Source of the DNA: Squalus acanthias
Taxonomy: Eukaryota
Assembly: GCA_030390025.1 (NCBI GenBank)
Contig: CM059431.1
Coordinates: 143,842,001 to 143,906,000, forward strand
Length of the DNA stretch: 64,000 nt
Direction of reading: 5' to 3'
Translations under genes and position numbers: made by a program
Shown here: one piece after another, positions 27,864 to 63,972 of the stretch
Layout: each line of letters opens with the position of its first letter
Position numbering within the stretch: the first letter of the stretch is position 1
The notes under the pieces: generated by a model
Seen by the model: the letters and a program-made list of their open reading frames with translations, nothing else
Databases searched by the model: none
What the model was told of the DNA's origin: nothing

Positions 27864-27867
27864 AAGA

Positions 27868-28115: not shown

Positions 28116-28129
28116 TATTCCTTGAGAGT

Positions 28130-28612: not shown

Positions 28613-28715
28613 GGGGATCAGAGAATCAGAGACATTTACACCACAGAAGGAGTCTTGTTCCCGCCGGCCGGCCGGCAGAGAGCGATCCTCCCCAGGCCCA
28701 CTTTCCAGCTCCTTC

Positions 28716-29035
28716 AGAACATCAGAACACCAGGAGCAGGAGTGGGTGACCCGGCCCCGAGCCTTTTCCACCATTCAATCAGACCCAGCAATCCATCTCT
28801 CTCAGAACATCAGGAGCAGGAGTGGGTGACCCGGCCCCGAGCCTGCTCCAACATTCAATCAGATCAAACAATCCATCTCTCTCACAACATCAGGAGCAGG
28901 AGTGGGTGACCCGGCCCCGAGCCTGCTCCACCATTCAATCAGATCAAACAATCCATCTCTCTCACAACATCAGGAGCAGGAGTGGGTGACCCGGCCCCGA
29001 GCCTGCTCCACCATTCAATCAGATCCTGGCTGATC
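28716..29035 (+). repeat. 80-bp tandem repeat (~4 copies) derived from a CR1 3' terminus
   Basis: CAGGAGCAGGAGTGGG at 28731, 28811, 28891 and 28971; the last copy runs into the CR1 fragment. Confidence 0.85.
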
Positions 29036-29390
29036 ATCGAGCTCACTCCCCTCTCCCACCCCCGCCCCTGCCCCTTACCTTGAAACTATGCCCCCAGGTT
29101 ATTGACCCCTCTACTAAGGGGAAAAGTTCCGTTCTATCTACCCTATCTATGCCCCTCATAATTTTGTACACCTCAATCAGGTCCCCCCTCAGCCTTCTCT
29201 GCTCCAAGGAAAACAACCCCAGACTGTCCAGTCTCTCTTCATAGCTGAAGTGCTCCAGCCTGGTGAATCTCCTCTGCACCCTCTCCAATGCAATCACATC
29301 CCTCCTATAGTGTGGCGACCAGAACTGCACACAGTATTCCAGCTGTGGCCAACTAGCGTTTTGTACAGTTCCATCATAACCTCCCTCCTT
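29036..29390 (-). mobile_element. CR1-clade LINE 3' fragment
   Basis: PQLEYCVQFWSPHYRRDVIALERVQRRFTR…RRLRGDLIEVYKIM. Confidence 0.9.
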
Positions 29391-30607
29391 GGATGGGCCC
29401 AATGATATCAGACAGTGTGTAACCCCGGGAGGATGGGACCAGTGAGATCAGACAGTGTGTAACCCGGGGAGGATGGGCCCAGTGAGATCAGACAGTGTGT
29501 ATCCGGGGAGGATGGGCCCAGTGAGATCAGACAGTGTGTAACCCGGGGAGGAAGGGCCCAGTGAGATCAGACAGTGTGTAACCCGGGGAGGATGGGCCCA
29601 GTGAGATCAAACAGTGTGTACCCCGGTGAGGATGGGCCCAGTGAGATCAGACCGTGTGTAACCCGGGGAGGATGGGCCCAGTGTGATCAGACAGTGTGTA
29701 ACCCGGGGAGGATGGGCCCAGTGAGATCAGACCGTGTGTAACCCGGGGAGGATGGGCCCAGTGAGATCAGACAGTGTGTAACCCGGGGAGGATCGGACTA
29801 GTGAGTTCATACAGTGTGTAACCCTGGGAGGATGGGCCAAGTGTGATCAGACATTGTGTAACCCGGGGAGGATGGGCCCAGTGAGATCAGACAGTGTGTA
29901 ACCCGGGGAGGATGCGCCCAGTGAGATCAGACCGTGTGTAACCCGTGGAGGATGGGCCCAGTGAGATCAGACCATGTGTAACCCGGGGAGGATGGGCCCA
30001 GTGACATTTGTCAGTGTGTAACCTGGGGAGCATGGGCCCAGTGAGATCAGACAGTGTGTAACCCGGGGAGGATGCGCCCAGTGAGATCAGGCAGTGTGTA
30101 ACCCGGGGAGGATGGGCCCAGTGAGATCAGTCAGTGTGTAACCCGGGGAGGATGCGCCCAGTGAGATCAGTCAGTGTGTAACCCGGGGAGGATGGGCCCA
30201 GTGGGATCAGACAGTGTGTAACCCGGGGAGGATGCGCCCAGTGAGATCAGGCAGTGTGTAACCCGGGGAGGATGGGCCCAGTGAGATCAGTCAGTGTGTA
30301 ACCCGGGGAGGATACGCCCAGTGAGATCAGACAGTGTGTAACCCGGGGAGGATGCGCCCAGTGAGATCAGTCAGTGTGTAACCCGGGGAGGATGGGCCCA
30401 GTGAGATCTGATGTGTGTAACCCGGGGAGGATGGATCCAGTGAGATCAGACAGTGTGTAACACGGGGAGGAGGCGCCCGGTGCGATGGGACAGTATGTAA
30501 CCCGGGGCGGATAGACCCAGTGAAATCAGACAGTTTTTTAACTCGGGGGGGATGAGCCCAGCGAGATCAGACAGTGTTTAACCCGGGGAGGATTGGCCCA
30601 GTGAGTC
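29391..30607 (+). repeat. 40-bp minisatellite CAGACAGTGTGTAACCCGGGGAGGATGGGCCCAGTGAGAT, ~30 copies
   Basis: Directly visible tandem array. Confidence 0.97.
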
Positions 30608-35514: not shown

Positions 35515-35630
35515 TTTGTGTTCTACATTACAACAGTGCCTAAACTTCCGGAGCACTTATTTGACTGTAAAGCGCATTGGGACGTCCTAATGTGCTGAAA
35601 GGCGTTATATAAATGGAAGTTTTATCTTAT
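35515..35630 (+). mobile_element. SINE 3' fragment (AmnSINE1/SacSINE-like)
   Basis: CTACATTACAACAGTG…TGTAAAGCGCATTGGGACGTCCT…GAAAGGCGTTATATAAATG resembles the recalled consensus. Confidence 0.6.
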
Positions 35631-35641
35631 TATTTCAGGAA

Positions 35642-38600
35642 ATGGAAGAATCAATTCACAGAGAAATGATTTGTTCCGTTCATTCTCGGAATTCGGATCA
35701 ACGTGCTCGCAGTTCTGTGGAAAACACAGATGCCGAAACATGTACCTGTGCTCGGTGTAAATTTACACAGCTACTGACAGACCTGGGGCTGCAGGAATTC
35801 TATCCCAACAGACTGTCCCTTAGCAAAGTACTGGAGATTAATACGGAGAAACTGGAAGATAAAGTACCAGCCCGTCCTACAGATATTCCCTGGCATTTCC
35901 TCAGGATGCTGATGGGGGCGAATTCCGCCGCGAGAACCATCGATCTTCTGCCAACAGTGGAAGTAACAGAAAATACGATGGATAAAAATGCTATTAACTT
36001 TTTCTCACAAAGTACAAAGACGACGGCAGCGTCTTTCAACCCGTTAGACATAATTTCTGCCGTCTTCGTTTGTGCAGATACCTTCCTGCAACAGGAGCTG
36101 GTTTTGAAAATGTCCTTGTGTCAGTTTGCACTGCCAATATTATTGCCCCATCTTGAATGGAGACAAACTTTCTTGCTGCGGCCGATGCGTTCCATTGTGA
36201 GAAGGTATCGGCCTCAGTCAATGAGAAAGAAGGATGGATTCCTAGAGGAATGCATGGCAACGTCAGATATTCCAACCTTTGCTTTCGTTCGACTTGGTCG
36301 CTGCTCGTTGTCAAAATCAAAAATGCTAAATTACATTCTTAGCAACTCCCAACAGCAGCAGAATTATTTTGTCCATTCAGGTATGGCATCTGGCGATATA
36401 CCTAGAATAGTTTCAGACGGACTGATCGAAATGTGCTGGTACGTACCTTATGGCAGTGAAGATGTCGATGTCATTCCAGAAGCGCTGGGCATAATGAACC
36501 TCCGGGGAGATGCCGAATTGTTCCCCGAACAAATCCAGTTCCTGACAAAAGTTGCTACTGCTGTGTTCGTTTTTATTGATCATTTAAACAAAGATATAGA
36601 AACATTTCTGTCATCCAATTTCCAGGTTCCACAGAAACTGTTTCTATTAGTCAATCCCGATTCTAATCTAATGGAAATAACAAACCGCCTTTTAAATAAG
36701 TTTTGCAACTCAAAATTTATAGAAATAGATCACATTTTATCAGCATTCCAAAAGAATGAAGCAGCTTTGGCAAAACTGTTTAGATCTAAATTAGTCGATA
36801 TCTTAAGATCAAGGTCAGGAGAACAGGAGAAAGCATTGAGCTTGCAAGCGATGGCCTCAGTGGCCAGAGAAGTTAACTTTCTGGTGGATGAAGACGAGAT
36901 TGAGTTTTCGGAAGCTAGGAAAACGTCAGAAGAAATTCTCCATTCGATTCTGAGTGAAAATATTAAACAGTTCAAAGAAACACATTTATATTTCCAGGGG
37001 GTTGTTTGGAAAGAGATTTCTGATATAGAGAAGGAGCTGTGTCGGCTGAGGCGCCTCAGAGGGCAAATTGTGGCGGATTATGTCGCTGATCTGAAGAAGC
37101 AGAGACATGATCTTTGTAAACGGCTGGTAAATAGGGGAATGTCAGATGTGATGAGTAAAATGATCGTAGTACTCCAGATCCCGAGCAACAAAAGGAAACA
37201 TTTCCTAAACTGCCTGAAATATGAACTGGATTCCAGGTCCCGCACATTACTCCATGATCTACATGAACGGTACATGGAATTAAATCTAGAGTCTCAGAAT
37301 CAAAATCCAGATATTCAGAATCAACAAACCGAGCTCAATAAGAAGCTTATGGACAGTTCATTGGGTTTGGAGCATTTCCTCCGTGAAATGGGGCTCATTT
37401 ATGAAGTGTTCCAGACATCAGCGACAATTCCTCCAGATATCAAAACGTTTCCTTCCATAGCTGCTGATCTGATGCTGGACGGTTTCCCACTGGAGCTCAT
37501 GGATGGAGATGTTTCCAACATACCCGTGGAGTGGGTCACCGCCGTGTTCAAAGAACTTGAAAAGAAAGTTGGACCTTGCCGTATTTTTGTTCTATCGGTG
37601 CTGGGAGTACAGAGTTCAGGCAAGTCCACTCTTCTGAACACAATGTTCGGCTTGCAGTTTGCAGTAGGATGTGGACGATGCACTCGTGGTGTCTACATGC
37701 AGCTCATTAAAACTACCGGAGCGATACAGAAGTGTGGTTGCGAGTTCATTCTGATCCTCGACACAGAGGGTTTGAAATCTCAGGAACTAGCCCGTGTTGA
37801 TGGCACACACGAACACGACAATGAATTGGCGACACTAGTGTCTGGTTTAAGCGATTTAACATTGATTAACATGTCAACAGAAAGTGATTCAGAAATGAAG
37901 GAGGTCCTGCAAATTGTGGTCCATGCCTTTATTCGCATGAGAATAGTCGGGAAAAGACCTAATTGTCAATTTATCCACCAAAATATCGGAGATGTGTCTG
38001 CACATCAGAAGAACGCGATCAATCGGAAGCTCGTGCAAGAAGAGCTGGACCAGATGACCAGGATCGCGGCTGAAGCTGAGCAAGAAGATTGTCATTTTTC
38101 AAAGTTCTCGGATGTATTAGATTATGATTCTGAGACAAACAACTGGTACATCCCAGGTCTGTGGTGTGGGACACCACCGATGGCGGCAGTTAATACTGGG
38201 TATAGCCAGGCGGTGCGAGAACTCAAGCAGAACATTGTAAAGTGTTTTCTCAGCAGGAGACTTTCAACCGTCACCGACTTCATCAGTTGGATGAGAAGCA
38301 CGTGGAATGCTGTGAAACATGAAAATTTCATTTTCAGTTTCAGGAACTGTCTCATTGCGAACGCTTACAATCAACTTTCCATGAAATACTCGGACTTGGA
38401 ATGGAAAATGCAGAGTGAGGTAAATTCCTGGTTGGAGACAGCGCAAAACCGAATCAGAAACTATAAAGGAGACCTTCAAGAACTAAGAGAAACGTTGAAC
38501 AACGAACTTTTCAAAGTGATCGCCGAAAGGAAATACCAAATGATCAATGAAATGGAAGAATATTTCAACAGTGACACTGACCAGGCGCATCTGATTGAGA

Positions 38601-40608
38601 ATTTTAAGGCAGAGATGATGGCGAGTTTTAAGTCAGTTTGTCTGAATCTTGAAACTCACACAAATAGGAAATGCGGGGAAGCAGTGATCAGATACGAAGG
38701 TCTAAATCAATTGAACCATATCATACGTGGCTACATGAATAAGATACAAGAAGAAGTTGATCAACTTTTACACGTCTTGAAACTGGAATCAACAGAACAA
38801 ACTGACAGCGAACTGAGCGAAGCGTTTGGAAAGATGTGGACAGAAACAATGTCGTCAGTACATTACAAGCCCGTGGTAATCAATATCAACAGAGATATGG
38901 AAAATAGTTTGATAGAAAATATGAGAACACATGGAAGCATACTTACCGAGAAACTCGCGTCCGGGAAAAGCCTCCTTGAGATGAGCAAAATGGAATGGAA
39001 AATTACTAAACAGCATATTGATGTAACCAAAGCATCTTATCTGAAAAGATTTGCAAAAAAGACATGTAAAGTTTCTAGCCATGTTATGGATGGGGTAAGT
39101 TATATGTTGGGGCAAAAGAAAGGACACGTGCAAAAAGATGAAACTGAAGCATGGGTGGAAACCGAATGTTTATTAGAAGCAGAGAAGAACGCTGGAACAT
39201 TGATATCACAATGCAAGGAATATGTGCAAGAGATGGTGCGGAAAGGGAAAGAGTACAATCCGCTCCTTTGCACAGAACTTCTAAGAGAACTGGATGAACA
39301 ATTACAGAAAGTCGATGGTGAAATATTCAAGGTCAATGAGCTGTTCAGGACAGATGTGAAAATCCACATCTGTGGCTTTGCAGTTCAGAGATTTCAGGAG
39401 ATGCACGACGGCTTCTGTGATGAACATAATCACCGGAAGAAGCTCGAAGATGACAGAAAATATTACTTTGAAATTTTTAAATATCTATACTCTGAAAAGG
39501 ACCAGAGTGAGGCCTGTGCCAAACTCTTCTGTGAATCCTGCCTAACACCCGCCTTGTTGGATGATCTTGACCAGCGACTGGGAGGAGCGATTGTAGATCA
39601 CATCAGGAAAGAAAGAAAAGAAGAATTTAAATCGCGCAGAAACTTCAAGTGGGAATTATGCTAGATCTGAAAAAGCAGAACAGCTTCGCAGAGTATTCTC
39701 GATACATTGGACAGACCCGAACCTTCGAACAAGATTGGGTGAAGAAACAAGTACTGAATCATTGCAAAATCTTAAACAGCAATCAGTCCGTCCTTTACTG
39801 GATAGCTGCGGAAATTCTGCAAAGAAAAATATATCTAATGCAACAAACTATTAAGGACATTATAAAGGATTTTGCTGAAGATGTTGAAAACTTTTTGGAT
39901 GAATTCAAACTGAGACTTGGAGATCACATTGTATTTCCACCGAACAAGCTGGAAAACAAAAGCGCTTTCAAAAACGCCCCGAGCTTTGTGACTAAATTGA
40001 CCAATTCAATCCCCGATTTGGAAAAGCTTCTCCTGCAAAGTATTGAACAATGGGACGTTGAACAGAAAGTGTTAGGTCTTCCAACAGATCCTTCCAAGGA
40101 GCTCTACCAGATGCTGTCTGGGTGCGGGGAGCATTGCCCATTCTGCCAAGTACCCTGTGACCTCACAAGCAACAACCATGAGAAGCACTTGGCTACATAT
40201 CACTGGCCGCAGGGGATTGGAGGTTGTTGCTGGAGATGGAGTAAAGCACTAGTGACGGAAAGCTGCGCAGCTACAAGTGCCGAATTGTATTTGTACCGAG
40301 CAGAAGGTGACTCTTTCTTGGAACGAGTTGTGCGAAACTTTAAGGAACTAGTTTTTCGCATAGCCTATATAGAAACGCAGTGCAAACGATGTGATTCCTG
40401 GAAAATCCCCACAGTTCCGGAAGCTGAGATACCATCTTATTGGAAATGGGTGTTCCACACCTATAACACGGAGTTCGCAAAGAAATACAAACTGGAACCT
40501 GCAGCAAATATATCAGATTGGAACATCCCGTGGGAGAAGATAAAGAGCGACCTAGAAACGGAATATGATGTGAAGGTTGATGAATTCTCTTTGTCTCCTC
40601 AACCTTAG
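35642..40608 (+). CDS. GVIN1: Interferon-induced very large GTPase 1-like (GVIN/VLIG, URGCP-related), one giant exon, ~1655 aa if the frameshift near 39655 is repaired; possibly a pseudogene
   Basis: G1 GVQSSGKS, G2 region GRCTRG, G3 DTEG, HDNELAT; family motifs FNPLDII…FLQQELVLKMSLCQFALP, LGLEHFLREMG, PLELMDGD; C-terminal CPFCQVPC…HWPQG and YWKW; acceptor TTTCAG at 35633-35638. Confidence 0.88.
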
Positions 40609-41684: not shown

Positions 41685-44600
41685 TGTAGAATAGAGCTTA
41701 TCTGTATGATTTGATAATGTTTCAAATGTAATGATTTTCTTAAAATTACTATGATATATAATAATGCAAACTAGAAGCATAAAACCTTTGTTGCAATATG
41801 TATAACCTTAGTTAAAAAGACACAAGGCGGAGAAGCAAAGCATGATGGTAAAATTAAGCCAACATTATGTTAACTGCGTGAATAGTGCTAAAGTAGATAG
41901 AAGTTCTGTTATATTAAAAACAAAAAGCCAGTGAAGGACAAAACATTAATTAAGTCTCAAAATCAGATAAAGAGTTTTCAATACCGAACATCCCATATCG
42001 CTGAAGTTTCAGACCAGTCTAGATAAAGGGCTATGCGAAAGGCAAAATACATCTTTCGTAATTCGTGGGAAGTCTGTTTATGTAAAGGTTCTCATAAAAA
42101 TCTCATAGCAAAAAAAGTAAGGAAATCATCGCCTATTGAAGGTCAGAATTGTGAGATAGCCCAAGCTGCTGCAAGTTGCCAAATATTTTGAGGGAAGACA
42201 TAGGTATAAATGAACAGTTATTGAACACTGGAGGCAGCGCAGAACCAGAGGAAGAGAAACTTCAGTCAACAGAACATAGGAAGACAGAGAAAAAAGGCCG
42301 TGCCACAGTCACCCAGTGGGCACACTATTGGGGTTTCAAGAAACAGATTGCGACTATCATGTTGTTAAGTATTACTTCTTTGTACTGGAGGTAAAGTGCT
42401 TAATAAATCTGTTGTACTTATGCACAATATACCTGCACCACGAACGGTCTGTTATAGTCATGGACAATTCAAATATGCATTACAGATTTTGTACATATCA
42501 CAAAACTTGCAATTGGGATTTGTAAATCTTTGCAAATCTTATAATTGGCGGCCACGAAAGGATGTTGACTATTAACTAAAAGCAAGTATTATTGTGGATA
42601 AGGAAGCTGGGTTATCGTCTGGCCAATGGTGAATTCAGGTGGATTGTTGGAATTCTCAGACAAAGTCACAATGGATTCTATTCTTTCTTTTGTTATTAGG
42701 AAGTTACCTTGTAAATTAATTGTAGCACTTCTCTCTCTAATGTTAAAACACCGTGTAAACCACCTACCCTGGGAATCACTTGTTTCTGAAATTGGAATTG
42801 ATAAGATAAATTGATAGAAATGAAATTGAACACTGACAAAACCTCTCAGTTGAACAATACTGCTGTTTGGATTTTGGGGTAATTTTGAAATGACAAAATG
42901 GTCTTAGGCACCATATATTGGGTTACTTTTGGGAAAATAAATGATCCTCTAAAATAATGATAAATAAAAAGTGTTAATAACTTGGACCAAGTGAGAACAT
43001 TTGATCTATTTTTCTAAAATATTGTACTGTACTGTAAAGATCCTCCAGGGCTCATGAATGAGATAGGACTGGTAATTAATGGGATGTGTAAAATGGAGAG
43101 AGGAAGTGATTGAGTGTGGATGATAGAAACAGGAAAATTACATAACCAAATGAGAATTTTCCAAACTTTCTAGTGAAAGTCCGGAAAGTGTAGCTACAAA
43201 TAGTAAATTGATAGCTTTCTCTTGGAGACATTTGTGTCCCTGCATAGAATGAACCTTTTTAAGAAAACTGAATTTGACAGTCCGGCCACTACCTAAGACA
43301 GCGTGACCCTGCAGAGGTAGATGAGCAAAGTTCTCCAGACGATTAAAATCTTTTGATAGGATCACCTGAAAGCCCAATAATGGCTTTACTCGGATGTCAT
43401 GTGTGGTATGATATGGAGATGCCGGTATGAGTGTGCAAATGTGATTTGTGACGTATGAAGCAATTACCATCTGGAAATGCATGGTGAATTTGCACGGAAT
43501 AACAGGTCTCAGACATGCTCAGTTACTTGACAACAGCAAGACATGAAATGGTTAATGTGGCTCAGGAGCGTGAGCAAAGATTTAATGCATTGACACATAC
43601 TCCATCGAGAAACTATCTAATTAATGAAACAATCAGAATAGATTTAAACACACTGGTACGTGATAGAGGGATTGAAATAGAGGTTTAAGCACAGAATTAC
43701 ATGGAATTTGGATTGGGACAATTGAGGCTAAGGAGAAATCATGTTTAGTAAGAATTATCCACAAGATGGATACGAGTAAGAGAGATCAGGAGAATCTTTT
43801 AAGTCCATGATTTCTTGATTCAATGTTAAACTGTAATGTCACGTGAAACGATTGTAAGACTGAATTAAAATTTGTAACTGTAATAATAGTGTTTTGTAGA
43901 TAACAGAGTGTGGGAAAAAACATTACGAATCCAGTATGAGGTGATTTTGGTGCTGCCTCCTGTGTCACTACTACTGCAACTACCATGCATTATGGGTCTA
44001 ACAGGACCTGTCCCATCATCCAACGCATTTTACTCAGTATCAAAACCTATGCTCATGTGAAACTGACAGTAAATTAGATACTTAACTATGAGCTGCACAA
44101 TTATGTGGCACAATTATGATACTACATTCCCATGTTGCCTGAGGGCCTCAGTAAGATCGTGATGCATCTGAACTTCTCCCTAAAGCATTTTTATGTTTTG
44201 GCGCAAGACAACTCGAGAATAGATATTGAAATTGACAGTTTAAGGGACAACTCACACTGGTGGGCTTAATGCATCAGCACGGCCTTAGCTTCGTATTATT
44301 TCACACGCTCTGGTAGTTCTCCAACTGGTAATGATAGTGTATTTGATATATGTAACCCGTGTAGTAAGACTTTGAACTATGTAAGATCAGAAGTTTGAAT
44401 ACGATCTACACAGTCAAACACGAATGAAACAAGGTAGGGAATCAAAAATTGTTAGGACTAATAATCCAAATTCTGAGTCTAATGAATCGAAACAGACCTA
44501 ACCCTCTGTTTAGAGTAGAACATATAGGAGTGGCGAAAAGAAATCCCCCCTTGGATTAGAATAATTTCACACGTACTGGTCATAACCCAACTTATGGTAT

Positions 44601-45648
44601 TACTGTGCTTACTGCTCCACACCTGCTATTTAAGGCACATAATGCACAAGACAAGATCACAATTGGAAATAATCACACCACAGAACCTGTTAGAACTAAG
44701 CAAACGTGGTACAGCAAACCCATACAATAGAGCTTATAAAATTGACGGGTCAGCAAAAATGCCTCGCCCTCAAGTTAGGGATATTGTAGAATAGAGCTTA
44801 TCTGTAAGATTTGATAATATTTTAAATGTGATGCTTTTCTTAAAATTACAATGATATATAATAATGCATGTTCGAAGCTTGAAACCTTTGTTGCAATATG
44901 TATAACCTTAGTTAAAAAGACACCAGGCTGAGTAGCAAAGCATAATGTTAAAATTAAACCAACATTATGTTAACTGCGAGAATAGTGCTAAAGTAGATAG
45001 AAGTTCTGTTATATTGAAAACCAGAAGCCAGTGAAGGACAAAACATTAATTAAGTCTCAAAGTAAGATAGAGGGTTTGCAATACCTAACCTCCCTTATCA
45101 CTGAAGTTTCAGACCAGTCCAGATAATGGTCTATGTGAAAGGCAAAAGACATCTATCGTAATTCGTGGGAAGTTTGTTTATGTAAAAGCTCCCATAAAAA
45201 GCTCATAGCAGAAAAAGGCAGGAAACCATAACCGTACTTTTGAAGATCAGAATGGTGAGATATCCCAAGCAGCTGTAAGTTGCCAAGTATTCTGAGGGGA
45301 GAAAACGGTATAAATGAACAGTTATTGAACACTGGAGGCAGCGCAAAACCAGAGGAAGAGAAACTTCAGTCAACAGAACACAGCAAGCCTGAGAAAAGAG
45401 ACGGCACCGCAGTCACCAGGTGGGCACACTACTGGGGTTTCAAGGAACAGATTGCGACTATCATATTGTTAAGTATTACTTCTTTGTACTCGATGTAAAG
45501 TGCTTAATAAATCTGTTGTACTTATACACAATATACCTGCACCACGAGTGGTCTGTTATAGTCATGGACAATTCAAATATATATTACGGATTTTGTAAAC
45601 ATCACAAAACTTACAATTCGGACTTTGTAAATAATTGAAAATCTTATA
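41685..45648 (+). mobile_element. Internally deleted LTR retroelement with env remnant; LTRs 41685-42543 and 44785-45648; TSD GAGC
   Basis: ~860-bp direct repeats starting TGTAGAATAG and ending CTTATA; GAGC on both flanks; PBS-like TGGCGGCCACGAAAGGA at 42546; purine-rich tract before the 3' LTR. Confidence 0.9.
44090..44340 (+). pseudogene. env C-terminal remnant homologous to the env at 60100-62434
   Basis: ELHNYVAQL*YYIPMLPEGLSKIVMHLNFSLKHFYVLAQDNSRIDIEI aligns without gaps to NLQTYVTYFGYKIPPLPEHLTILLKAVEISQKHFYTLEQKTVEIGAEI (20/48 identical by hand). Confidence 0.8.
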
Positions 45649-50304: not shown

Positions 50305-51490
50305 CTAAGTTGTCGGACTAATGCTGAATGGGGAATTGGGGTTGTGTTCACTGGTAGCGCAGGTTGATGATTCAATTCCGGACATCCCGGCCAGAAAGGA
50401 GATGACTGGATTTCCTCCTCCCTTCCAGTTCCTCTTCCCCTTTCCCGCTTCCCCCACTTCTTCTTCTTCCTCCTCTTCCTCCTCCTCCTGCTCCTGCTCT
50501 GATTGTTGTATATCTGGATGCAAGTGCTGTGCCCTCATGATGGCCAGATTGTGGAGGATACAACAGACCACCATGAATCGGGACACACGCTCCGCTGAGT
50601 TCAGTAGGCCTCCTACAGAGCGGCCCAGGCAGCGGAACCGCTGCTTCAGCAGCCCAATGGTCTGCAATATAAGCTTGTGTGTGGCAGCATGGCTCGCATT
50701 GTACGCATGCTGGCCACTTGTGGTTGGGTTGTGGAGCAGAGTCATGAGCCAGGTGGTCTGGTTTGACAAAGTGGCTCAAAGACAGAGGGAACAGCGGACT
50801 GGTGCAAAATAAAAGCATCATTACTGTTGCCAGGTTACTAGGCATTCACCATCTTGATCAGCTGAGCATGGTCGCAACCCAATTGCACAATCAGTGACTT
50901 GAAAACTTTGCAGCTGCATTAAATCTCAGCATTTAGCAGTGGCGCCCACAAAGCCCCGTGCATGCAGTCGATGCCCTGCACTATGAGGAAGCCCACAATC
51001 CTAACATACAACGTGCACACTCCGCCTGCTACTCTCTGTTCAGAGAGAAGACAATGAAGTCCGCTCTCCTTTCATAAAAAGCCTCTGTCACCTCTCTTAT
51101 GCAGCAGTGGACGGCGGACTGCGAGATGTTACAGTTGTCGCCTGCACCAGCCTGGAAGAATCCCAACCCAAAGAAATGCAGGGCCGCGGTAACCTTCACT
51201 GCCACTGGCAGCGCTGTCCTTGCCCTGGTGTGAGGCTCTAAGTTTGGTATCAAGAGGTGGCAGAGTTCTGTGAGCACCTCCTTCGTAAAGCACAGATGCC
51301 TCACACACTGCTCCTGGTTCAGACTGAGGTAAGATAGTTGCTCTCGGAAGAACCTCGCTGGGTAAGGCCTCTTGCTGAAAGCCCTTCTCCTTTCCTCATC
51401 CTCCTTCTGCGAGCATCTTGTCCTCAACATTGCTGCCTCTGCTCCATCTCGCTTTCATGCTGCAGGCCAAGGGCGATGACAACCAGAACA
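50305..51490 (-). pseudogene. Harbinger (HARBI1-like) DDE transposase remnant
   Basis: LPVAVKVTAALHFF…ISQSAVHCCIREVT; GIDC; YNASHAATHKLILQTIGLLKQRFRCL; CCILHNLA. Confidence 0.85.
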
Positions 51491-52559: not shown

Positions 52560-53815
52560 TGTAGGCTTCGCAAAATCCCCCAGAAACTCGAACAGAGCCC
52601 TAAAGGGAGTGATTTTTGGACCTTTCATACAAACTTGGGATGATGGGACCTAAGTGCAGTGATTTGATGTAAAAACCTCAGTTTTGGACATTTTAAAGAT
52701 CAGGGAAGAAAAAAACCCTGAGGAAAATGACTTTTGAATCATACTGTTGGGAAAGACACCTTTCACAGACGCAAGACAGGCTGCGGAGGGGCGTGGCCCG
52801 GCAGTGGACAGCTTTGGGTATTGGGGCCCAATCAAGCTGTCTGGGAATTGTTTACACTGCAATCCTAACAAGGAGGAAGAGACAAACCCAAAGCCTCACA
52901 CAAACATCGAAATATGAATAATCCAAGACCCCCTTTTGAAATTCCCAGGCCCAAACAGGATACCAGAAGCCTGAAATCAATAAAACCTTTAGTACTTAAT
53001 CAAAAACCAATCAACCAGGTATCCACAGGACAGATTTAAAAGCCCGCCAAAAGACTTAGGACAATAAGGTTGAGATTTGGCACTTAGATAAGGCTGTGTT
53101 AAATCGGAAAATGATCAGGACATGTTTAACACTGAGCTAAAGCCATCGGAACTGGCAAGCCCGCCAAAACTAGACAATGGACTTTGCAAGGCTCATTTGC
53201 AACCTAAAGGAAACCGTTTTAGTGAGGGGTTTTTGGGCGCGAAATAAAAGACAGTATAATTGAAAGCCTGTCCCAAAACTCTTTCTCTTTTGGACTCGCT
53301 GACAACGCCGGTACAGCTCTACCCTGCTCCAGCAAAACCACCACAAGCCACGAGGAGGAAGGCCAGCAAACAGACCATCACACAAGAAGAAAACAGAGAG
53401 ACTGTCTCAGTGACCATCGGACACCTCGCAGCAACAAGGACCTTACAGAATCTTTTAATCAAAAGACTCTAAAAGCCTGTCAAGGATTCGTTGGTGAGCA
53501 TTATCCCTGATCTCCTGAAACCAAAAACCTAGTTAGATAGTAGGATCTTTGGGAGGGATAAGGTTTTTGTTTGGTATATCGTCATTCTCCCTCGCCTGTA
53601 CCGTGTGCTCCCCAATCTGTGTTTAAGTATTAAGTGTGTTTTAAGTTTGTTACCTTTTTCTTTTAATAAAGTAAAAATTCTTTCATCAGAACATGTTGTC
53701 TACTGCATTTTTGTTCACAACACCTAAATAAGTCCAAAGTCTAGGAACCAGGGGCGTGGGAGCGAGTCGAACCGCTCACTGAGTCCGAAGGCTGACCCCA
53801 TTACCACCCCCTGCA
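52560..53815 (+). repeat. 5' LTR (TG…CA)
   Basis: Direct repeat of 62715-63972; AATAAA at ~53665. Confidence 0.92.
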
Positions 53816-53818
53816 TAA

Positions 53819-53836
53819 TGGCGACCGCGGCAGGAC
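53819..53836 (+). promoter_or_regulatory. Primer binding site, tRNA-Arg(TCG)
   Basis: TGGCGACCGCGGCAGGAC is complementary to the recalled vertebrate tRNA-Arg(TCG) 3' end …GTCCTGCCGCGGTCG-CCA; 3 nt after the LTR. Confidence 0.85.
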
Positions 53837-53889
53837 TTTGGCGAAAGGGTTGTGAAGCAGTAAATGCTGGTTTTGAGGAGAGAACAAAA

Positions 53890-55620
53890 ATGGAAGAGAG
53901 GATGTCATCCTATGTATATAAAAAAGTCAATATCACCAAGAAATGGATCCTCAGGCTGTTGCATGCTAATCGTCCTATGCATGCTGCAGCTTCATGGACT
54001 GAGAGCAAGGAATACAATAAGTCTGTGGAGAAAGCCATATGGTTGGTCTGCTCCTAGAAACAGATGCAACTTATGGGGAAGCGCATTCAGGTTCTCACAG
54101 AAGAGCTAACGGAAGAAAGCCAACTGTCCCGTTCCAGAGCTATAGCAGGAGACAGGTTGTTAGCAGAGCTAGGCAAAAAAAATCAGGAACAGTCACAGAT
54201 GCTGGAGGAACACCGTGCCAGTAAGGGATACCTCCAGTGTCAGGCCCGAGGCCAAAAGTAGTGAACTGGCATTGCGGGAAGAGAACACCCGCCTTGCCAA
54301 GCAATTACGGGAACTCAGAGAGAAGTTAAACGATGTTCAGGCAGCTTACAGAGCAGCCAGTACAAGGGAGTTTGAGGTAGGGGACCACGGCCCCTGTCAG
54401 AAGCAGATTGAGAGTCTGAACCTTGCTCTGTCCAAGACAAAAGGCATGCTGTGCCTGATAAGCCCGGGTGCGGCCCAGGGAGACCTGGAGGAGCAGGGGC
54501 AGACTGTTCGAACACCACCTGTGGCGCCAAGGAGAAGCTTGGTTAGGCAGCAGGAGGGGCAGACAATCTGTGAGGCTGACAGGAGTGCACACCAGCAACC
54601 CTGGCGCCGAGTTTTGACTCGGTCTGGCAGCAGGGAGAGGGGAGAAAACAGATGCAGAAGTCGGAGCCAGGGCCAATGTGCCCAGCTCGACAGCAAAAAT
54701 TCGACTCGCCCGCCGGTGGTGGAGGTCAGGGCCACCTTGAAAATCAATTCTTGGCTCCCCACGGTACACAACAGCTTAGGGCTATGGTAAGCCACCTGAG
54801 TAAACTTACCCAAAAGAATGACCCCTCAGTCCACTTCATGGAGGTGGAGCAATCAGCAGCCATCAACGATTGTGACTATGCCGAAATGGCAAAATTGCTC
54901 CTGTTCTCATTAGATGGCAAATTGTACAAGTCACTCTCTACTGAGAGCAAGAGAGGGCAGACCGGGTATGCTGCCGTAAGGGAGGAAGTATTAGAGGCCA
55001 TGGGAATGAATGAGGGAAGTCCTTTCTCCCGGGTGGAGAAAACAGTGCAGCTCGCAGGGGAGACCCCACAGGCTTTCGCAGACAGGATGTGGCCGGTGCA
55101 CAGGGGTGCTTGTAATGGGGCTCTCGAAAGGGCTAACCTGAACAGTGACGAGCTGGCCCACTGGCTCCGTAGCCTAGTGGCAAACAGCTTGCCACGAATC
55201 AAAGCCAAGTCTGAGCTCTGGTTTGACTCAAGAGATCCCCGGGTCACCGAGGAGGCAGTGGTCAGGCAACTGACCCTAGCCTACCGGAACGGTAGGGGCC
55301 TGAAAGGGAAGGTGCATGAGATAAAGCCCAGTCAGGATAAGAAGGAGTGGCACCAGGAAAATGGTTAACCTTCCGACACGAAGCGTAGCTGCTTTGGGTG
55401 TGGGAAGACTGGGCACTGGAGAAAGGACAGTAGGAATCCCTGGAAGGATAGCTTAGCAAAGAAGTCCCCAACTCCTGTCCCAAAAGTAGAGTCACCGACC
55501 TCTTCCCCCACACTGGACACAATAGTAGCGGCCATCAGCGTCCTGTTTGATGGCCCAGGGAAGGTGGCTACAGCCACTGGCGCTCTAATCCCATCTGCCC
55601 CACCCAACCCAGAGGCATGA
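53890..55620 (+). pseudogene. gag: gag (coiled-coil N-terminal region, capsid-like region, degenerate zinc knuckle)
   Basis: Heptad-rich ELALREENTRLAKQLRELREKLNDVQ; QLAGETPQAFADRM; CFGCGKTGHWRKDS near 55390; several stops and frameshifts; start codon uncertain. Confidence 0.75.
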
Positions 55621-58600
55621 CTAGAGCTAGCACAGCCGGTCTACCTGTGTCCCCTCGAGTATAATGCCTGGAAGCGACCGCATGTTAAGATGGAGGTAGA
55701 AAAGGTAGGACGGACATTTCTGTTAGACACAGGAGCTTCGAGCACCCTTATTTATTCAGATAACACAGCCACTTCACCTCTGTCTAACGGGGTCCCGTGC
55801 AGCCTAGTGGGATTCACAGGTAACGTGCAGGCTGGCTCATACTCCATCCCGCTGTCCATTCATTTGGGAACGCTCCACACCAAGTGGACCTGTGTCCTAA
55901 TGAAGTGGGAGCAAGAAGGGAAGGGGATCCTGGGGGCCGACTTTATCACAGGCCACAGGATTTTAGTGGATTTAAGGAACCACTGTCTATGGGGAGCATG
56001 TACCCAAAATGGTAGTGAGGTAGCAGTCATCACGGAGGCACAAGGCAAGGGGACCTTGTGCAAAGTAAAACCAAAGGAGGGTTACGACCTCGAACTCATG
56101 GTCAGTAACACTCCAATGGAGTACCAGGCATTTGTGCAGGAAAACCTCGCAGCATTTGCCACTCACAAGTACGTCTGTGGGAGGGTACCGGGGTCGAGGT
56201 TAGTGTGAGTGGGGACCCCATGAACCGCCCACAAAAGCAATATAACTTCCCCAGGGAACCTGAGACAGACTTGAAAACGGCGTTGACTTCTTTAGTCAAG
56301 CAGGGGGTATTGAGACCTATAGTTGCCCACGTGAACTCCCCACTGTGGCCGGTTAGAAAACCAGACAACTCCTGGAGGGCCACAGTAGACTATGGAGTAC
56401 TCAACCGAAACATCCCCGCCTGTGCCCCCACGGTTGCAGCCGTAGCCGACCTCATTGGAAGTATCCCAGCATCTGCGACCACCTTTACAGTGCTGGATAT
56501 TTCCAACGGGTTCTGGTCCATCCCTCTAAGGAGAGAGGATCAGTACAAGTTCGCCTTTACATTTAAAGGCCAACAGTACACATGGAACTGTCTGACCCAG
56601 GGCTTCCACAACAGCCCAAGCATTTTTCACCAATGTATGGCGAATTGCTTGAAGGGCTTCAGCAGGCCCCATCAGCTGGTCCAGTATGTGTACGACCTAC
56701 TCCTCTTTACCGATGAGGGAGAGGAACATGGTCCCCTTCTGGCAGAACTGCTGGAACTGCTCAGGCAAGAAGGCTTTAAAGTAAACCCCAAGAAGGCACA
56801 GATTGGCCAGCGGGAAGTCAAATTCCTGGGTCTGGCTGTGCGAGCAGGAAGAGGGCCATTGACAAACCTAGAAGGGAAGCAGTTCAGGAGTTACCAGCCC
56901 CCAACACAGTTACAGGAGTAAGGTCTTTTCTAGGGCTAACTGGGTACTGCAGTGATTTCATTGAGGATTACGCAGCCACAGCAGCCCCTCTGCTCCGACT
57001 CCTACACAAGGGAGTGGAGTGGGTTTGGGATGAGGGTTGCGAGGCTGCCTTTGTGAAACTCAAGAGAGATCTTCAAACCGCACCGGCTCTAGGGGCCATT
57101 GATGGAGGGGAAGAGTTTTTCCTGGAGGTAGCAGCCAGTGGGGACAGTCTGAGTGCAGTGCTGCTCCAAGAGAGGCATGGCAAGCTGAGACCAGTGGTTT
57201 ACTCCTCCAGAATACACACTGATGTGGAGAGGAGATACTTCAACTGTGAGAGGCACCTCCTAGCCACTCACTTGACTGTGAAAAGATCATTGATCTTCAC
57301 AGGCACCTCTCCCATCACACTCCTCACTCACCAAACTCCCACCCAGATGCTCTTGGATGGGAGAATTAAAGATGGGACAGTGAGCAGTGCCCGCATTGCT
57401 CGCTGGACCCTGCTTCTCTCACAAATGTATCTGAGGGTAAAAGGTCTCTGCGAGCCAAAGCTCGCAGCCAACATGATTTACTCAGGGACAGCCCACCGGT
57501 GTTCCGTTGAAGGGGTATGGGAAGTCAACATAGGTTTGCGAGCTGGGATACACCCCACAGGCCGCGAAATCTATGTGGAAGGTTCAAGCACAGTATCAGC
57601 TGGAAAACGACTCACAGGGTGTGGGATTTATGACCCAGAGGCAGCCATTGCTCTGGCATTCAAGCTCTCTAGCACCATGAGTGCGCAGCAGGCTGAACTA
57701 TCTGCGGTGGTGTATGTAGTCACACACCCCGAGGAATTCACTACCCCATACACGATTTGCTCGGACAGCATGTTCACATGCAATTCGCGTACAGAGTACC
57801 TGGCCATCTGGTCCCGTCGTGGATACACCTCCGCTGATGAGAGACCCCTGGCCATCAAGCCTCTGTTGGAGAAAATCATGAGGGCAGTAGGGGAGGAAGG
57901 TGGGGTCTACATCCAAAAGGCGAAGTCCAATTCCAAGGTAGAGCCCCGCGCAGAGGGCAATCCCAAGCCGACATTCTGGCCAAAGAGGGCGCCAGTACAG
58001 GCACGTTGGAATCAAATGGGTCCATGTGGATCAAACCCGGTAGCAGCAATCAGAGGCAGAGGAGGGACCCAAGGGAGTGCAAGGGTCGCATTGACCCCGG
58101 ACCTAAAGGCGGTCCAGGCACAGGATCCCATCCTAAAAACTGTCCTGGAAACGCTGGCTAGAGGGGAGAAGGTAAAGGGCCCATCCGGCGCAGCGGCCAG
58201 CACCCACAAAGAAGGCATGCTGTTCAGGGGGGAACAATGTGTAGTGCCGCAGTAGCACCGAAGGGAATTCCTCCAACTGGCCCATGAGGGTCCAGGAGCG
58301 GGGCATCCCGGGCCTGAGACCACCTGGCAGCGGGTGGAACAGGCAGGATGGTGGCCAGGACTGAGGGAGGATGTCAGCGAGTTCTGTGCAGGTTATCTGG
58401 TGTGTGCTGCTAACAACCCTGACCCCCAGAAAAGGAAGGTATCTATGGGACACATCAGGAGGGTAGAGGGACCATGGCAGTCGATCCTGGTCGACTACAT
58501 CGGGCCTCTACCCACCGCTCAGGGAGGCTACAAATACTGCCTAGTCCTGGTGGATGTGTTCTCAAAGTGGGTGGAAGCTTTTCCATGTCGAACAGCTACC

Positions 58601-59302
58601 GCTTTGGGTACAGCCAGGATCCTGGTCAGGGAGGTGTTCTCACGATGGGGGCTCCCACAGTATGTGGAGTCAGATCAGGGGAGTCACTTTACTGGGAATG
58701 TCATGCAGGAGACCCTCAGGGTACTCGGAATAGAAGGGAAATGGCACGTCGCCCACAACCCACAGTCATCAGTGATTGTGGAGCGTTTAAACCGTACCAT
58801 CAAAGAAAGGCTGCGAAAGGACATGGGAAACTCACCCAAAAAGTGGGTAGAAGCATTACCGTTGGTCCTAATGGGGATCCGGGCCAGCCAGTCAAAAAGC
58901 ACGGGGTATTCCCCACACCAGCTCATGACTGGCAGGATTATGCGGACCCCCACCCATGTGCTAGCCCCGGTGCTCACGGAAGGGCAGCTCAGGGAGGTGA
59001 ACCGGGACAGATTCGTCAGCAATCTGTTGGACCACCTTAAACAGGTCCACTGGCAGGCTGCGAGTAACATGGGAAAACAGCATCGGGGTAAACGATTGCT
59101 GCTGGAACCCCGCAAGCACCACGAGTGGGAGGTTGGAGATCAGGTCATGGTGAGAAATTTTGCCCGTGTAGGGAGTTTCGAACCATTGTACATGGGGCCC
59201 TACAACATTGTAGACAAGGCACGCCCCATGGTCTATGCCATAAAGATGCCCCGCCGTACAAAGTGGTTTCACATCAACCAATGCAAACTGTTTTTTACCT
59301 AA
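55621..59302 (+). pseudogene. pol: pol: protease, RT, tether RNase H, RNase H, integrase
   Basis: LLDTGA and ILGADF; QKQY, NSPLWPVRKPD, LDISNGFW, QGFHNSP, YVYD (YxDD mutated, 56685-56696); IYVEGS…SAQQAEL…SDS; IN HHCC remnant, VDYIGPL, SDQGSHF, ERLNRTIK, YMGPY. Confidence 0.92.
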
Positions 59303-60099
59303 AAGGGAACAGCCAGCAAAGGTGGACTGCCCCCAAGTTAGAAATCCTCAGCCAGCAGCAGCTGTGGCAGACGCACAAGCTGCAGCGGGAGGAATAGTGT
59401 GTTGTTTCACAGGAGAGGTCACTCCACCGATTATGTGGGGCTCAAGCACACCCCCAGTGGCCAGAGCCCTAAGAAGGTCTCCCCGCACACCACAGCCAAG
59501 GCCACTGTGGCCACAGGTGTATCTGTTTAGAGGGTCCCACCCAAAGAGGGTTGCAACCCCAAAAAGAGCGCCCAAGAGCAGAGAGCGTTCTAAAGTTGGG
59601 GATTCCCAGCCTACAGCCTCAAACAGTGAGGGTTTCACAGGAGAGGTAGTACTGGGAGAAGAGAGAGAGAAGGGTCCCCCGCCTGCAGCCTCAGGCTGGG
59701 AGGAGCCCACAGATATGAACGAGGGCGCTGCAGCCACACCAAAGGGGGTAGTGTGCTGCAGAACAGGACGCAGCTGGGATGTTAAGATACCCCCAGCGGT
59801 TTTCAGGAAGGCCTTCTGGGTCCGGCGGTACAGGCAGCATTACACCCAGGTGTACAAGCCATCCAGAGGCCAGCTAAGGCAGAGACTAAACAGGATTTAA
59901 CCTGGCCGTCCGGAGACGGGCGGCAAATGTACAGAATTTTCGGTTTTAAGTAATTGCAGTTTTGGTGATTATGGGTTATCATTAGTTTAGTTGTTTGTAG
60001 AGTTTTTTTAAGTTTAAGGGCTTGATTAATTATCCAGCCAGAAACTTTCTGGGACATGGATATATGTTTTGTGTGTCCCACTACAGAAAGGACTTCGGA

Positions 60100-62434
60100 A
60101 TGACAAGATTTCTGTTCCTGCTCGCCCTGGTAGGGGTGAGCATCGGTGACCGAGGTGACGTGGAGGACTCCCACATCTATGGGTGCTCAGGAGTGAGAGC
60201 ACCAGTCGTCACTGCAGGGGGTGGCGAGCGGGGACTGGAGGAGCTCGCCATCTACTTCCACGAGGGAAGGTGGCCAGGGTGGCTGGGGTCCAACTCTACT
60301 AAATACTCCAACCAGCCCGGGTTCACGTACGGGGATGCCTCCCTCCCATGCCCCAGAATACAGGTCGTTGCCACAAGGGTCAGTGTCACCGAGGGGAAGC
60401 GTGTGTGCCTTACCTGTAAGGGATTAATTTCCCTTAATAGGTGGTGGCGGCTCAGGAATCTGAGCAGGGACGCAGGGGACCATACAGCCGACTGGGAAAG
60501 ATTTGGGAACGACACCCATCGGACAATCACAGGGACCCAAGGAGGAGTGTGTGTTTGTTGGGATAAGTGGTGGGAGTCGGAACAGGGAGTCTATGTTTGT
60601 ATGTGGGGATCAGAGGAAGCCTGCCCCACAGGGGTATCCATCATCTTCTCCAGCCAATGGCAAGATGCCGGGGAGGGGATAGGGTGGGATTCTAGCCTCC
60701 ATGGGTGCGTGGTCCCACACATTCCGGTCTCAGTTAATGCCACTGAACTCGTGGCACACACCCGAAAGCCCCTACCCACGACCCAGGTACCGAAAACCCT
60801 GGAAGAAAAGTGCCCTACCACCACCAAGGGACCAGGGAATTGGTTAGTCCGAGTACCAACCGAAAAGGTACTATACCAGGGGGTACACTATGCAGTAGCT
60901 TCAGTAATATTAAACCTTACCGAGGTATACTTACCTGAGCGGTTTCATAAGGAGACGGAGCAGCTGTACCAGGCCCTGCTAAAGGAAATGTTTAGGACAT
61001 TTTACGAATTTGATTTTTTAATATAGACAAGGTAGAGCTATACAGAATACACCCTGAGAACCCTATGGGCACGGGTAGACAAAGAAGGGGAGCCTGGAAT
61101 GATGTTTTCACTGCCTATAGTACAGGGTCCTCTGTAATAAATAGCCTGGATGACATGGAATTACAGACACAGATAAATGGTTTAAAAACCCAGTTAAGAA
61201 TGATCCTGAAGGATGGAAACACAGTGGTAGGCTCAGAGCTACATGAGGACCAAGCTATGATGGTTCATTTAAAGGAAATTATTGCAGAATTGGAAAGGCA
61301 TGCCAAAACAGTAAATGCACTCATACGGGCGGATAGGAATGCATCGGATCAGGCTGCAGAGAATGAGGTGTGTGTGCTGTACGGGGCATAGTTGCTGGGC
61401 GAGGGCCGTAGCAACCTGGAGGATTTAAAACAAGGTTTAGTCCCCTCCTGGATCAGCAACAAGCACATCGCAGCCCTCCACCCGTTTAGTAATTAGCTGA
61501 GCCCATGCTAATTTCGTCTAGCCTCTGAAGCCTACCCTGTCCCAATAGATTGTGGCCGTTCCAATCACACTATCATGGGGATAGTAGTGAGAATGCCGGT
61601 CATGAGTGGGACAGCGCGACCCATACCGGTATACAGGGTGGAGAATATTGGAGTCATTCAAGGGGGTGCACACATCCGTTTTACAGCGGTCCCACCTTAT
61701 GTCATAAAGTGGGAGCACGCCATGACAGGTACTGACGTCTCCAGGTGCCGGAGCCGGGGTTCACACATGATACTGTGTCCCTAGCACTTGAACGCCTATT
61801 CCAAACGACAGTGCGAGTTTAAAGCTGCTGGCGCACGACCTATCAACTGTCCCATGGAGGTGATGGCACACGGCCATGTTTCCCCACAGGTAGCATATAT
61901 AGCGGGTGGGACATATTGTGTCACCACAGTTGCGTCCCACTACCAGCATGGACACTTCTGGTGTCCGCTAAGTGACAGCAGTTTCTGCTTTAAGCCCGAG
62001 GCAGAAGTCCAAGCGGCCCAAGAACGGATTGTCCCCATTCCTGAAGCCTCCACAGAAAACATCACAAACCTGCAAACGTATGTGACTTACTTTGGATATA
62101 AAATTCCCCCTCTCCCCGAACATCTTACCATCCTACTTAAAGCTGTAGAGATTTCACAAAAACATTTCTACACCCTGGAACAGAAAACAGTTGAAATAGG
62201 GGCAGAGATTTTGGATATAGTAGTTCCACCCTGGTGGGATATTTTCGAGAATATAGAGGTGCCTTCCTGGATCAGGATGGCTTCCCATCTTTTGGTGGTC
62301 TGACAGCTCGGGATAGTTCTCTCCTGCTGTGTACAAAGTGCAGGAGAAGGGACGGGGAGCTCCGCTCCAGACACGAAGGGTCTTGGGAAGTGCATCAAAA
62401 TAAAGGCTATGGCCAGGGATGGAACGAACCTTGA
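60100..62434 (+). pseudogene. env: env-like class I fusion glycoprotein with N-terminal Ig-like domain
   Basis: Signal peptide MTRFLFLLALVGVSIG; furin site RQRR|GAWNDVF at 61077-61088; heptads; Cys-rich region; WW then hydrophobic TM; frameshift near 61020 and several stops. Confidence 0.8.
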
Positions 62435-62714
62435 ATTTTGTCTTTTAATAAAAAAATGTGTATGTGTGTTGTGTTATTTTATGATGTGTATGGTGTGTTT
62501 TTCCAAGCTGTGCAGGGGTGTCAGACCCTCTCCATGCTTGGATGTGAAATAAAGATTGATTCTTACCTGTATGTACCTGAAACAGCACTTTCAAAAGGGG
62601 AATGTATTTTTGGGTTTTTAGTTAAGGTAATACATGGGAAGGTTGGTTTTCAGGGATCGGAAATTTTGCTCACCTGTTAATGATACTAATTCAGTTTTAG
62701 TATCAAAATGGGAA

Positions 62715-63972
62715 TGTAGGCTTTGCAAAATCCCCCAGAAACTCGAACAGAGCCCTAAAGGGAATGATTTTTGGACCTTTCATACAAACTTGGGATGATG
62801 GGACCTAAGTGAAGTGATTTGATGTAAAAACCTCAGTTTTGGAAAGATCAGGGAAGAAAAACCCTGAGGAAACTGACTTTTGAATCTTACTGTTGGGAGA
62901 GACACCTTTCACAGACACAAGACAAGCTGCGGAGGGGAGTGGCCAGGCAGTGAACAGATTTGGGTATTGGGACCCAATCAAGCTGTCTGGGAATTGTTTA
63001 CACTGCAAATCCTACCAAGGTGGAAGAGACAAATCAAAAACTCACACACACATCGAAATATGAATAATCCAAGACCCCCTTTCGAAATTCCCAGGCCCAA
63101 ACAGGATACCAGAAGCCTGAAATCAATAAAACATTTAGTACTTCATCAAAAAACAATCAACCAGGTATCCACAGAACAGAATTAAAAGCCCGCCAAAAGA
63201 CCGAGGAAAATAGGGTTGAGATTTGGCGCGTAGATAAGGCTGTGTTTAAATCGGAAAACAATCACGAATTGTTTAACACTGAGCTAAAGCCATCGGAACT
63301 GGCAAGCTCGCCAAAACTAAACAATGGACTAAGCAAGGTTCATTTGCAACCTAAAGGAATCCGTTTTAGTAAGGGGATTTATGGGCGCGAAAAAGAAACA
63401 GTATAATTGAAAGCCTGTCACATAACTTCTCTCTCTTTCGGACTCGCTGACTACGCTGACACAGCTCTCTCCCTGCTCCAGCGAAAACCACCACAAGCCA
63501 CGAGGAGGAAGGCCAGAAAACAGACTAGCACGCAAGAAGAAACCAGAGCGACTGCCTCAGTGATCATTGGACACCTCGCAGCAACAAGGGCCTTACGGAG
63601 TCTTTTAAACAAAAGACTCTAAAATCCTGTCAAGGCTTCGTTGGTGAGCATCATCCCTGATCTCCTGAAACCAAAAACCTAGCTAGATAGTGGAATCTTT
63701 GGGAGGGTTAAGGTTTTGTTTGATATGTTGTCTTTCTCCCTCGCTTGTATCGTGTGCTCACCAATCTGTGTTTAAGTAATAAGTGTGTTTCAAGTTTGTT
63801 ACCTTTTTCTTTTAATAAAGTAAAAATATTTCATCAGAACCTGTCGTCTACTGCAATTTTGTTCACAACCCCTAAATAAGTCCAAAGTCTAGGAACCAGA
63901 TGGGTGTGGGAGCGATTCGAACCGCTCACTGAGTCAGAAAGTGAAGGCTGGCCCCATTACCACCCCCCTACA
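62715..63972 (+). repeat. 3' LTR (TG…CA), preceded by purine-rich AAAATGGGAA
   Basis: Direct repeat of 52560-53815. Confidence 0.92.

Follow-up and report, generated by a model that had tools for sequence, protein, structure and literature searches.

A probable immunoglobulin-like module fused to the F-type envelope protein of a shark endogenous retrovirus

An endogenous retrovirus (ERV) in the genome of Squalus acanthias encodes an F-type envelope protein (Env) that carries an additional, probably immunoglobulin (Ig)-like module at its N-terminus. The analysed stretch, here called the window, comprises 64,000 nucleotides (assembly GCA_030390025.1, contig CM059431.1, positions 143,842,001 to 143,906,000 of the forward strand), and the provirus occupies about 11.4 kb of it (52560-63972), with a long terminal repeat (LTR) at either end; this copy is dead. 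The module is part of an insert of about 220 residues between the signal peptide and the F-type Env moiety. Judged from the sequence, the core of the insert probably has an Ig-like fold, and the insert recurs in related sequences of the whale shark, a sawshark and a skate. Both an F-type fusogen in a retrovirus and the capture of an Ig sequence by an ERV are already known separately, and an Env with an Ig-like head would be a new variant of the F-type retroviral Env.

The first open reading frame (ORF) of env (60100-61026, 308 codons, P0001) contains the complete insert. The parts of env, with residues (aa) counted from the start of this frame, are:

60100..60150, plus strand: signal peptide, putatively aa 1-17, the strongest hydrophobic window of the ORF
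60151..60348, plus strand: N-terminal part of the insert, a conserved flank (aa 18-83) with Cys29; weakly similar to the F-G strands of Ig domains or to the last portion of an I-set domain lying ahead
60349..60654, plus strand: probable Ig V/I-set-like domain, aa 84-185, with Cys106 (B strand), position 117 (C strand), Cys167 (F strand) and the extra cysteines Cys84, Cys103, Cys153 and Cys175
60655..60726, plus strand: C-terminal flank, aa 186-209, Trp-rich, with Cys203; like the C-C' hairpin of a V domain
60727..60810, plus strand: linker rich in Thr and Pro, aa 210-237, where conservation is lowest
60811..61088, plus strand: F2-like segment with a frameshift at about 61014-61026 and, at its end, a furin-type site RQRR (61077-61088)
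61089..62333, plus strand: F1-like segment with fusion-peptide position, heptad region, Cys-rich domain and transmembrane helix, the hydrophobic peak lying at its end

An earlier note on this DNA had quoted three peptides as an Ig V/I-set pattern. All three were found in the frame 60100-61026 (aa 85-106, 114-118 and 159-167), and they fall into Ig register, with Cys106 as the B-strand cysteine, position 117 as the core of the C strand, aa 152-157 as the E strand and Glu161-Gly163-Tyr165-Cys167 as the F-strand motif, so that the pattern is real. The spacing of 61 between Cys106 and Cys167 lies within the expected range of about 55-75, and the two cysteines are kept in 5/5 and 6/6 relatives, respectively. 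The full pattern (B-strand Cys, Trp, E strand, [DE]xGxYxC) matches aa 102-167 of the window and 5 of the 11 relatives scanned (all 5 spanning the whole domain); it was matched by none of 200,000 shuffles of aa 18-237, and a looser pattern by seven of 200,000. Two additional cysteines, Cys103, three residues before the B-strand cysteine, and Cys153, 14 residues before the F-strand cysteine, are kept in 5/5 and 6/6 relatives, and presumably occupy the two positions that lie opposite one another on strands B and E in V domains; the spacing from the E strand to the F-strand cysteine is exact. Cys151 is private to the window copy (0/6 relatives).

Several details of the earlier description had to be revised. 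The family has a core C-strand Trp, in the column of aa 117 (inside the span of 10-15 residues after the B-strand cysteine that is typical of V/I-set domains), where seven of the eight relatives with a residue at this position have Trp and the eighth, P0007, has already left the homologous region; the window copy, however, has lost it, and the Trp pair originally assigned to the C strand sits one and two places upstream. This loss may explain why Pfam and Protein Data Bank (PDB) searches with the window sequence itself remained blank. The F-strand motif is present, but instead of the DxGxYxC given before it reads ExGxYxC in the window and in P0002, and the Asp is found in 5/6 relatives. The domain does not directly follow the signal peptide, because a conserved segment of about 65 residues (aa 18-83) intervenes, and it does not end at 60610, because the G strand is needed to about aa 185 (60654). 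The proposed order of a Thr/Pro-rich linker followed by an F-like moiety holds, though the linker is short (16 Thr, Pro or Ser among the 41 residues of aa 205-245).

Further indications of an Ig fold come from the relatives. When the 12 true relatives were scanned against Pfam, Ig_3 was matched by P0014 (E 0.0027, 18.6 bits), P0005 (E 0.0085) and P0003 (E 0.58). In the ESM Atlas, the named neighbours of window aa 80-190 were Ig clusters at 0.90-0.91, with nine of the ten best in one clan, and for P0014 all ten neighbours belonged to the Ig clan (0.90-0.92). The best PDB match of two family profiles was the Ig domain of CRTAM (E 0.71 and E 0.9), in alignments that matched up the two cysteines as well as the F-strand motif, and the PDB matches of P0014 were both Ig domains (basigin, E 0.59; CRTAM, E 1.3).

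The relatives were collected by a single-sequence search of 1.84 billion representatives, which returned 12 matches, nine true relatives and three spurious ones; the latter (P0009, P0012 and P0013) are repeat proteins without a motif match and were dropped. Two word-indexed searches added P0014, P0015 and P0016. Seven of the nine relatives that were looked up are named, two from Pristiophorus japonicus, two from Rhincodon typus and three from Rhinoraja longicauda, the last three being near copies and not independent. Longer relatives (540-2000 aa) were absent from 467 candidates. Metagenome contigs yielded 121 pattern matches and viral contigs 18, none of which was confirmed as a related locus. 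Parts of env are present in 20 of 24 listed sequencing runs (organisms A-G), and in 4/4 runs examined the coverage extended to 30/30 bins.

P0004, P0014, P0003 and P0015 continue from the insert into F2. P0004, P0011 and P0016 read through the F2-like segment in one frame, and in P0004 a single frame, with an internal gap, leads from the insert via the cleavage site to the transmembrane helix. In addition, contigs corresponding to 60151-60921 (run X12, organism F) and 60151-61105 (run X14, organism A) bridge the insert and F2; that these runs represent RNA is a guess only. As relatives and bridging contigs share the layout, the fusion of insert and F moiety is not an accident of this locus, but a family trait, and together with the motif order this supports the earlier proposal of a fusion to an F-type Env. 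The insert is more variable than F2 (identities of domain versus F2: 53/102 versus 46/63 for P0004, 62/102 versus 45/63 for P0014), as is expected for a host-facing part, and in the linker 9-16 of 15-28 aligned residues are identical in relatives.

Two side observations concern the same sequences. In contigs from both X12 and X14, position 59933 is joined directly to 60151, which leaves out the signal-peptide region, and one X12 contig lacks env altogether (59931-62501); these joints may be splice forms, deleted copies or other subfamilies. P0002 and P0011 are sawshark gene models that join env pieces to host genes, a C2H2 zinc-finger array and a Niban-like protein; they are provisionally regarded as gene models extending into ERV sequence and not as domesticated fusions, and may be annotation artefacts or exonised ERV sequence.

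The assignment of the Env moiety to the F-type fusogens is based on the order of its F1/F2 motifs, which is collinear with published lokiretrovirus Envs by eye, and on a weak match of PF00523 to one fragment of the F1-like segment (E 0.13); neither the moiety read through with X nor a four-row profile had a Pfam or PDB match. The Env also has a hydrophobic N-terminus, a coiled coil as judged by eye and a C-terminal helix; the cleavage site is RQRR and not RXKR. The provirus likely belongs to the lokiretroviruses. In common with those described in the available portions of the defining paper (Wang and Han 2020, PMC7947760) it has the arrangement LTR-gag-pol-env and a tether with a second RNase H, and its Env shares, by eye, the signal peptide, the GP-containing start of F2, the basic site, the heptad region, the Cys-rich segment and the transmembrane helix. 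The dual RNase H (RT_RNaseH_2, E 1.5e-18; RNase_H, E 1e-09; Pfam) is also shared with other retroviruses. Among solved structures the reverse transcriptase (RT) is nearest to foamy-virus Pol (E 9e-43), followed by murine leukaemia virus (E 1e-29) and Ty3 (E 5e-22).

There are also differences. The comparison comprised 23 of 24 consensus-element Env records in the available part of that source and was made by eye; one of them, Loki-Lch, has no N-terminus. In all 22 Envs with an N-terminus the GP motif follows the signal peptide within about 10 residues, whereas it lies at about aa 243 in the window, and the insert is present in none of the 22, which supports that the feature is not universal among lokiretrovirus Envs. 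Furthermore, the published Pol proteins examined have a long protease-RT spacer that this element does not have, the fusion-peptide region of this element is less hydrophobic, and the hosts listed in the accessible text include no cartilaginous fish, whereas the family described here occurs in sharks and a skate. The class I organisation F2-furin site-F1 is shared with F0 of paramyxoviruses and pneumoviruses (PF00523) and with the F-type ENV of errantiviruses (PMC13524379 and preprint), and the terms 'immunoglobulin' and 'Ig-like' do not occur in the available text of the latter sources.

The most likely role of the module, at about even odds, would be that of the receptor-attachment head of a one-chain F-type Env. 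Of the two roles named in the earlier note, receptor binding and immunomodulation, each is deduced solely from where the module sits. The ancestral precursor would have consisted of a signal peptide, an Ig core whose N- and C-terminal extensions are held by disulfides, a short stalk of Thr and Pro and F2-furin site-F1. After furin cleavage the module would stay on F2, so that the trimer would display three Ig heads on flexible stalks. Cys106-Cys167 would form the canonical disulfide and Cys103-Cys153 a cross-strand bridge between B and E, and pairs 84-175 and 29-203 are guesses. The head would bind a cell-surface molecule, probably another Ig-superfamily protein, and would do in one chain what the paramyxovirus attachment protein and alphaherpesvirus gD do separately. 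Paramyxoviruses use a separate attachment protein; a Pfam scan of the provirus did not recognise a separate attachment gene. An argument against an attachment head is that the published lokiretrovirus Envs spread between hosts without the module, and thus F alone can attach.

The absence of the module from the 22 Envs in the available records would also fit a role in immune evasion, in which the F moiety attaches, like that of other lokiretrovirus Envs, and the Ig domain acts either as a decoy that engages an inhibitory or adhesion receptor or as a glycosylated cover over the fusogen. The four N-glycan sequons in insert and linker (aa 65, 120, 137 and 213) would be in accord with this role, as would the 59933-to-60151 joints in the two runs guessed to be RNA, which skip the signal peptide and indicate that other forms may exist. 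Large DNA viruses do use captured Ig domains for immune evasion. Immunomodulatory viral Ig proteins are usually separate genes, however, whereas all relatives covering the junction have the module in one chain with the fusogen, and no likeness to a specific immune ligand was found; immune evasion appears unlikely.

Several results weigh against the Ig fold itself. No Ig match reaches a curated or significance threshold: the Ig_3 matches are all below the curated cut-off of 30 bits, the window ORF and its domain have no Pfam Ig match at E up to 10, one PDB search with the window sequence gave no Ig match and in another three of four weak matches were non-Ig, and P0004 has neither a Pfam nor a PDB match. 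ESM Atlas scores of about 0.9 also arise for 4-10 of 100 shuffled proteins, and the top three window matches have no family. The AlphaFold models (predicted local distance difference test, pLDDT, of 31 with a single sequence and of 43 with nine sequences, the latter with a helix on the expected C strand) are too poor to judge the fold, and searches with these low-confidence models (Foldseek against PDB and BFVD; VIA-align) gave no significant match; entries of single-chain variable fragments among the weak Foldseek rows were not counted as evidence. P0008 has Phe in place of the B-strand cysteine, and the motif patterns were composed after the sequence had been seen, which makes the shuffle odds optimistic. 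The insert could therefore be a Cys/Trp-rich beta domain of viral origin that fits the Ig pattern by chance, which would also suit the Trp residues at aa 154 and 157, unusual for positions in the E strand and the EF region. Yet Pfam, language-model and PDB sequence searches independently point to the Ig clan in several relatives, and the exact E-strand-to-F-cysteine spacing and the extra cysteine pair fit the Ig register, which makes a chance resemblance improbable. The Ig domain seen in the earlier note is therefore retained as probable on sequence evidence, although the models did not confirm it and Pfam did not find it in the window ORF.

Still more improbable is a role of the module as a structural clamp, or as an aid to folding, by which the F trimer would be held in the pre-fusion state until triggering releases the module: the strongly conserved flanks and cysteines would fit a part packing on a partner, and retroviral surface subunits (SU) do clamp the transmembrane subunit (TM), but the poorly conserved Thr/Pro linker before F2 suggests a tethered independent domain, and the lokiretrovirus F folds without a module.

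The flanks of the Ig-like core seem weakly Ig-derived as well. In the N-terminal flank 35-45 of 62-63 residues are identical in five relatives, and that of P0005 weakly matches the F-G strands of antibody heavy-chain variable domains (VH/VHH, E 0.012-0.023). In an alternative alignment of P0005, with DIP-eta (E 0.15), aa 40-120 correspond to the end of one I-set domain and its continuation into the next; these alignments read the flank in two incompatible ways, and antibodies were not recovered by the family profile search. The C-terminal flank resembles the C-C' hairpin of a V domain. Two post hoc patterns, one for each flank, both match the window; among the 11 relatives they have 3 and 5 matches, and among 200,000 shuffles 2 and 30. 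The idea that the flanks are decayed internal duplicates of the Ig core was rejected, as the hhalign scores were not above those of column-shuffled controls (102, 25 and 182 of 200 controls reached them). A multi-Ig donor of the insert is possible and can serve as a lead.

The earlier note had regarded the module as captured from the host, and the nearest host donor of the Ig superfamily was therefore sought. Neither the single-sequence search nor a profile search with 8000 scored candidates revealed a significant one; only members of this ERV family and the three spurious repeats were found. Weak in-register matches to CRTAM (4h5s, E 0.7-1.3), basigin (7y1b, E 0.59) and DIP-eta (6eg0, E 0.15), none of them significant, do not identify a donor. 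Because no donor was found, derivation from a host gene, derivation from another virus and a very ancient capture cannot be distinguished. Tentatively, and with less than even confidence, it can be proposed that an elasmobranch lineage of F-type retroviruses joined part of a multi-Ig vertebrate receptor to a paramyxovirus-like fusogen, where it served as a receptor-binding head, so that a single chain carried out both attachment and fusion. The grafted part would be a whole V/I-set domain and relics of the Ig domains next to it, possibly a V region like that of antigen receptors. If true, a class I F protein would here have naturally gained a host-derived targeting domain of its own.

Two known systems invite comparison, each cited from the parts of the source that were available. 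CrocERV31 (Chong et al. 2014, PMC4299795), the closest precedent for Ig capture, also has an Ig-superfamily sequence at the env position of an ERV, and its authors speculate on receptor binding by the captured nectin3. In that case, however, a whole, recognisable host gene with three Ig domains, about 76% identical to the host protein, replaces env, whereas the module described here is highly diverged, has no donor that could be found, and is joined in frame to a fusogen that has been kept. Alphaherpesvirus gD (PMC5453625) has an IgV-like core with N- and C-terminal extensions that are tied by extra disulfides and binds receptors, and is therefore used as a working analogy; gD differs in being a separate protein beside a class III fusogen, and no sequence or fold match to gD was found here.

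In agreement with the earlier note, which was not aware of a characterisation of this architecture, no account of an F-type Env with a fused Ig domain was found in the literature searched, a scope outside which lie subscription journals, Repbase and bioRxiv supplements. The term 'immunoglobulin' has no occurrence in the available text of PMC7947760, PMC9040795, PMC12440569, PMC13524379 with its preprint, PMC4422223 and 10.1101/2021.11.23.469661; the passages available from PMC11089739, in which this term was not searched, do not cover an Ig-F layout.

The question addressed by these results is how F-type Envs of loki-like viruses find their cells without a separate attachment protein. The Ig module on F2 is discrete, of soluble size and can be expressed alone to seek a receptor, and it illustrates one way in which a bare fusogen can acquire a binding domain like that of SU. 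In addition, F-type retroviruses are extended to sharks and skates, none of which are listed in the accessible part of the defining paper (PMC7947760).

Outside env, the provirus contains the following features:

52560..53815, plus strand: 5' LTR, with TG...CA ends by eye, aligned to the 3' LTR; a TGG primer-binding-site-like motif lies just downstream
54173..55620, plus strand: gag, in pieces, with a CCHC knuckle near its end (zf-CCHC, E 0.0025)
55621..59302, plus strand: pro-pol, frameshifted, with aspartyl protease, RT, tether (RT_RNaseH_2), second RNase H and integrase (Pfam)
59244..59900, plus strand: open frame of 218 codons between pol and env, without a family match
62715..63972, plus strand: 3' LTR, aligned to the 5' LTR

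The F1-like segment of env is interrupted by five in-frame stops (61389, 61494, 61509, 61782 and 62301). The two LTRs are 90.5% identical across 1268 alignment columns and a matching target-site duplication was not seen by eye; the provirus is possibly an older or a recombined member of its family. The 218-codon frame, which has no Pfam match and is Arg/Tyr-rich at its end, is a possible accessory gene.

A second, decayed and internally deleted LTR element is located at 41685-45648. Its LTRs of about 860 bp are 89% alike, and what it retains of a related F-type env, apparently rearranged, stems from the C-terminal part (31% identical, E 1e-5 to 4e-7); matches to the insert, gag or pol were not found in it. 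The remainder of the window includes nested, GC-rich, 95-97% identical copies of a non-LTR retrotransposon (1-23800; endonuclease, RT, zf-RVT and an upstream CCHC ORF), minisatellites (24663-30605; a 22-bp unit repeated 148 times and a 40-bp unit repeated 30 times), a single frame of 1357 codons of a host gene like URGCP or very large GTPases (35591-39664, E 6e-158), and, on the minus strand, the relic of a Harbinger-type DDE transposase (50305-51454; DDE_Tnp_4, E 6e-10).
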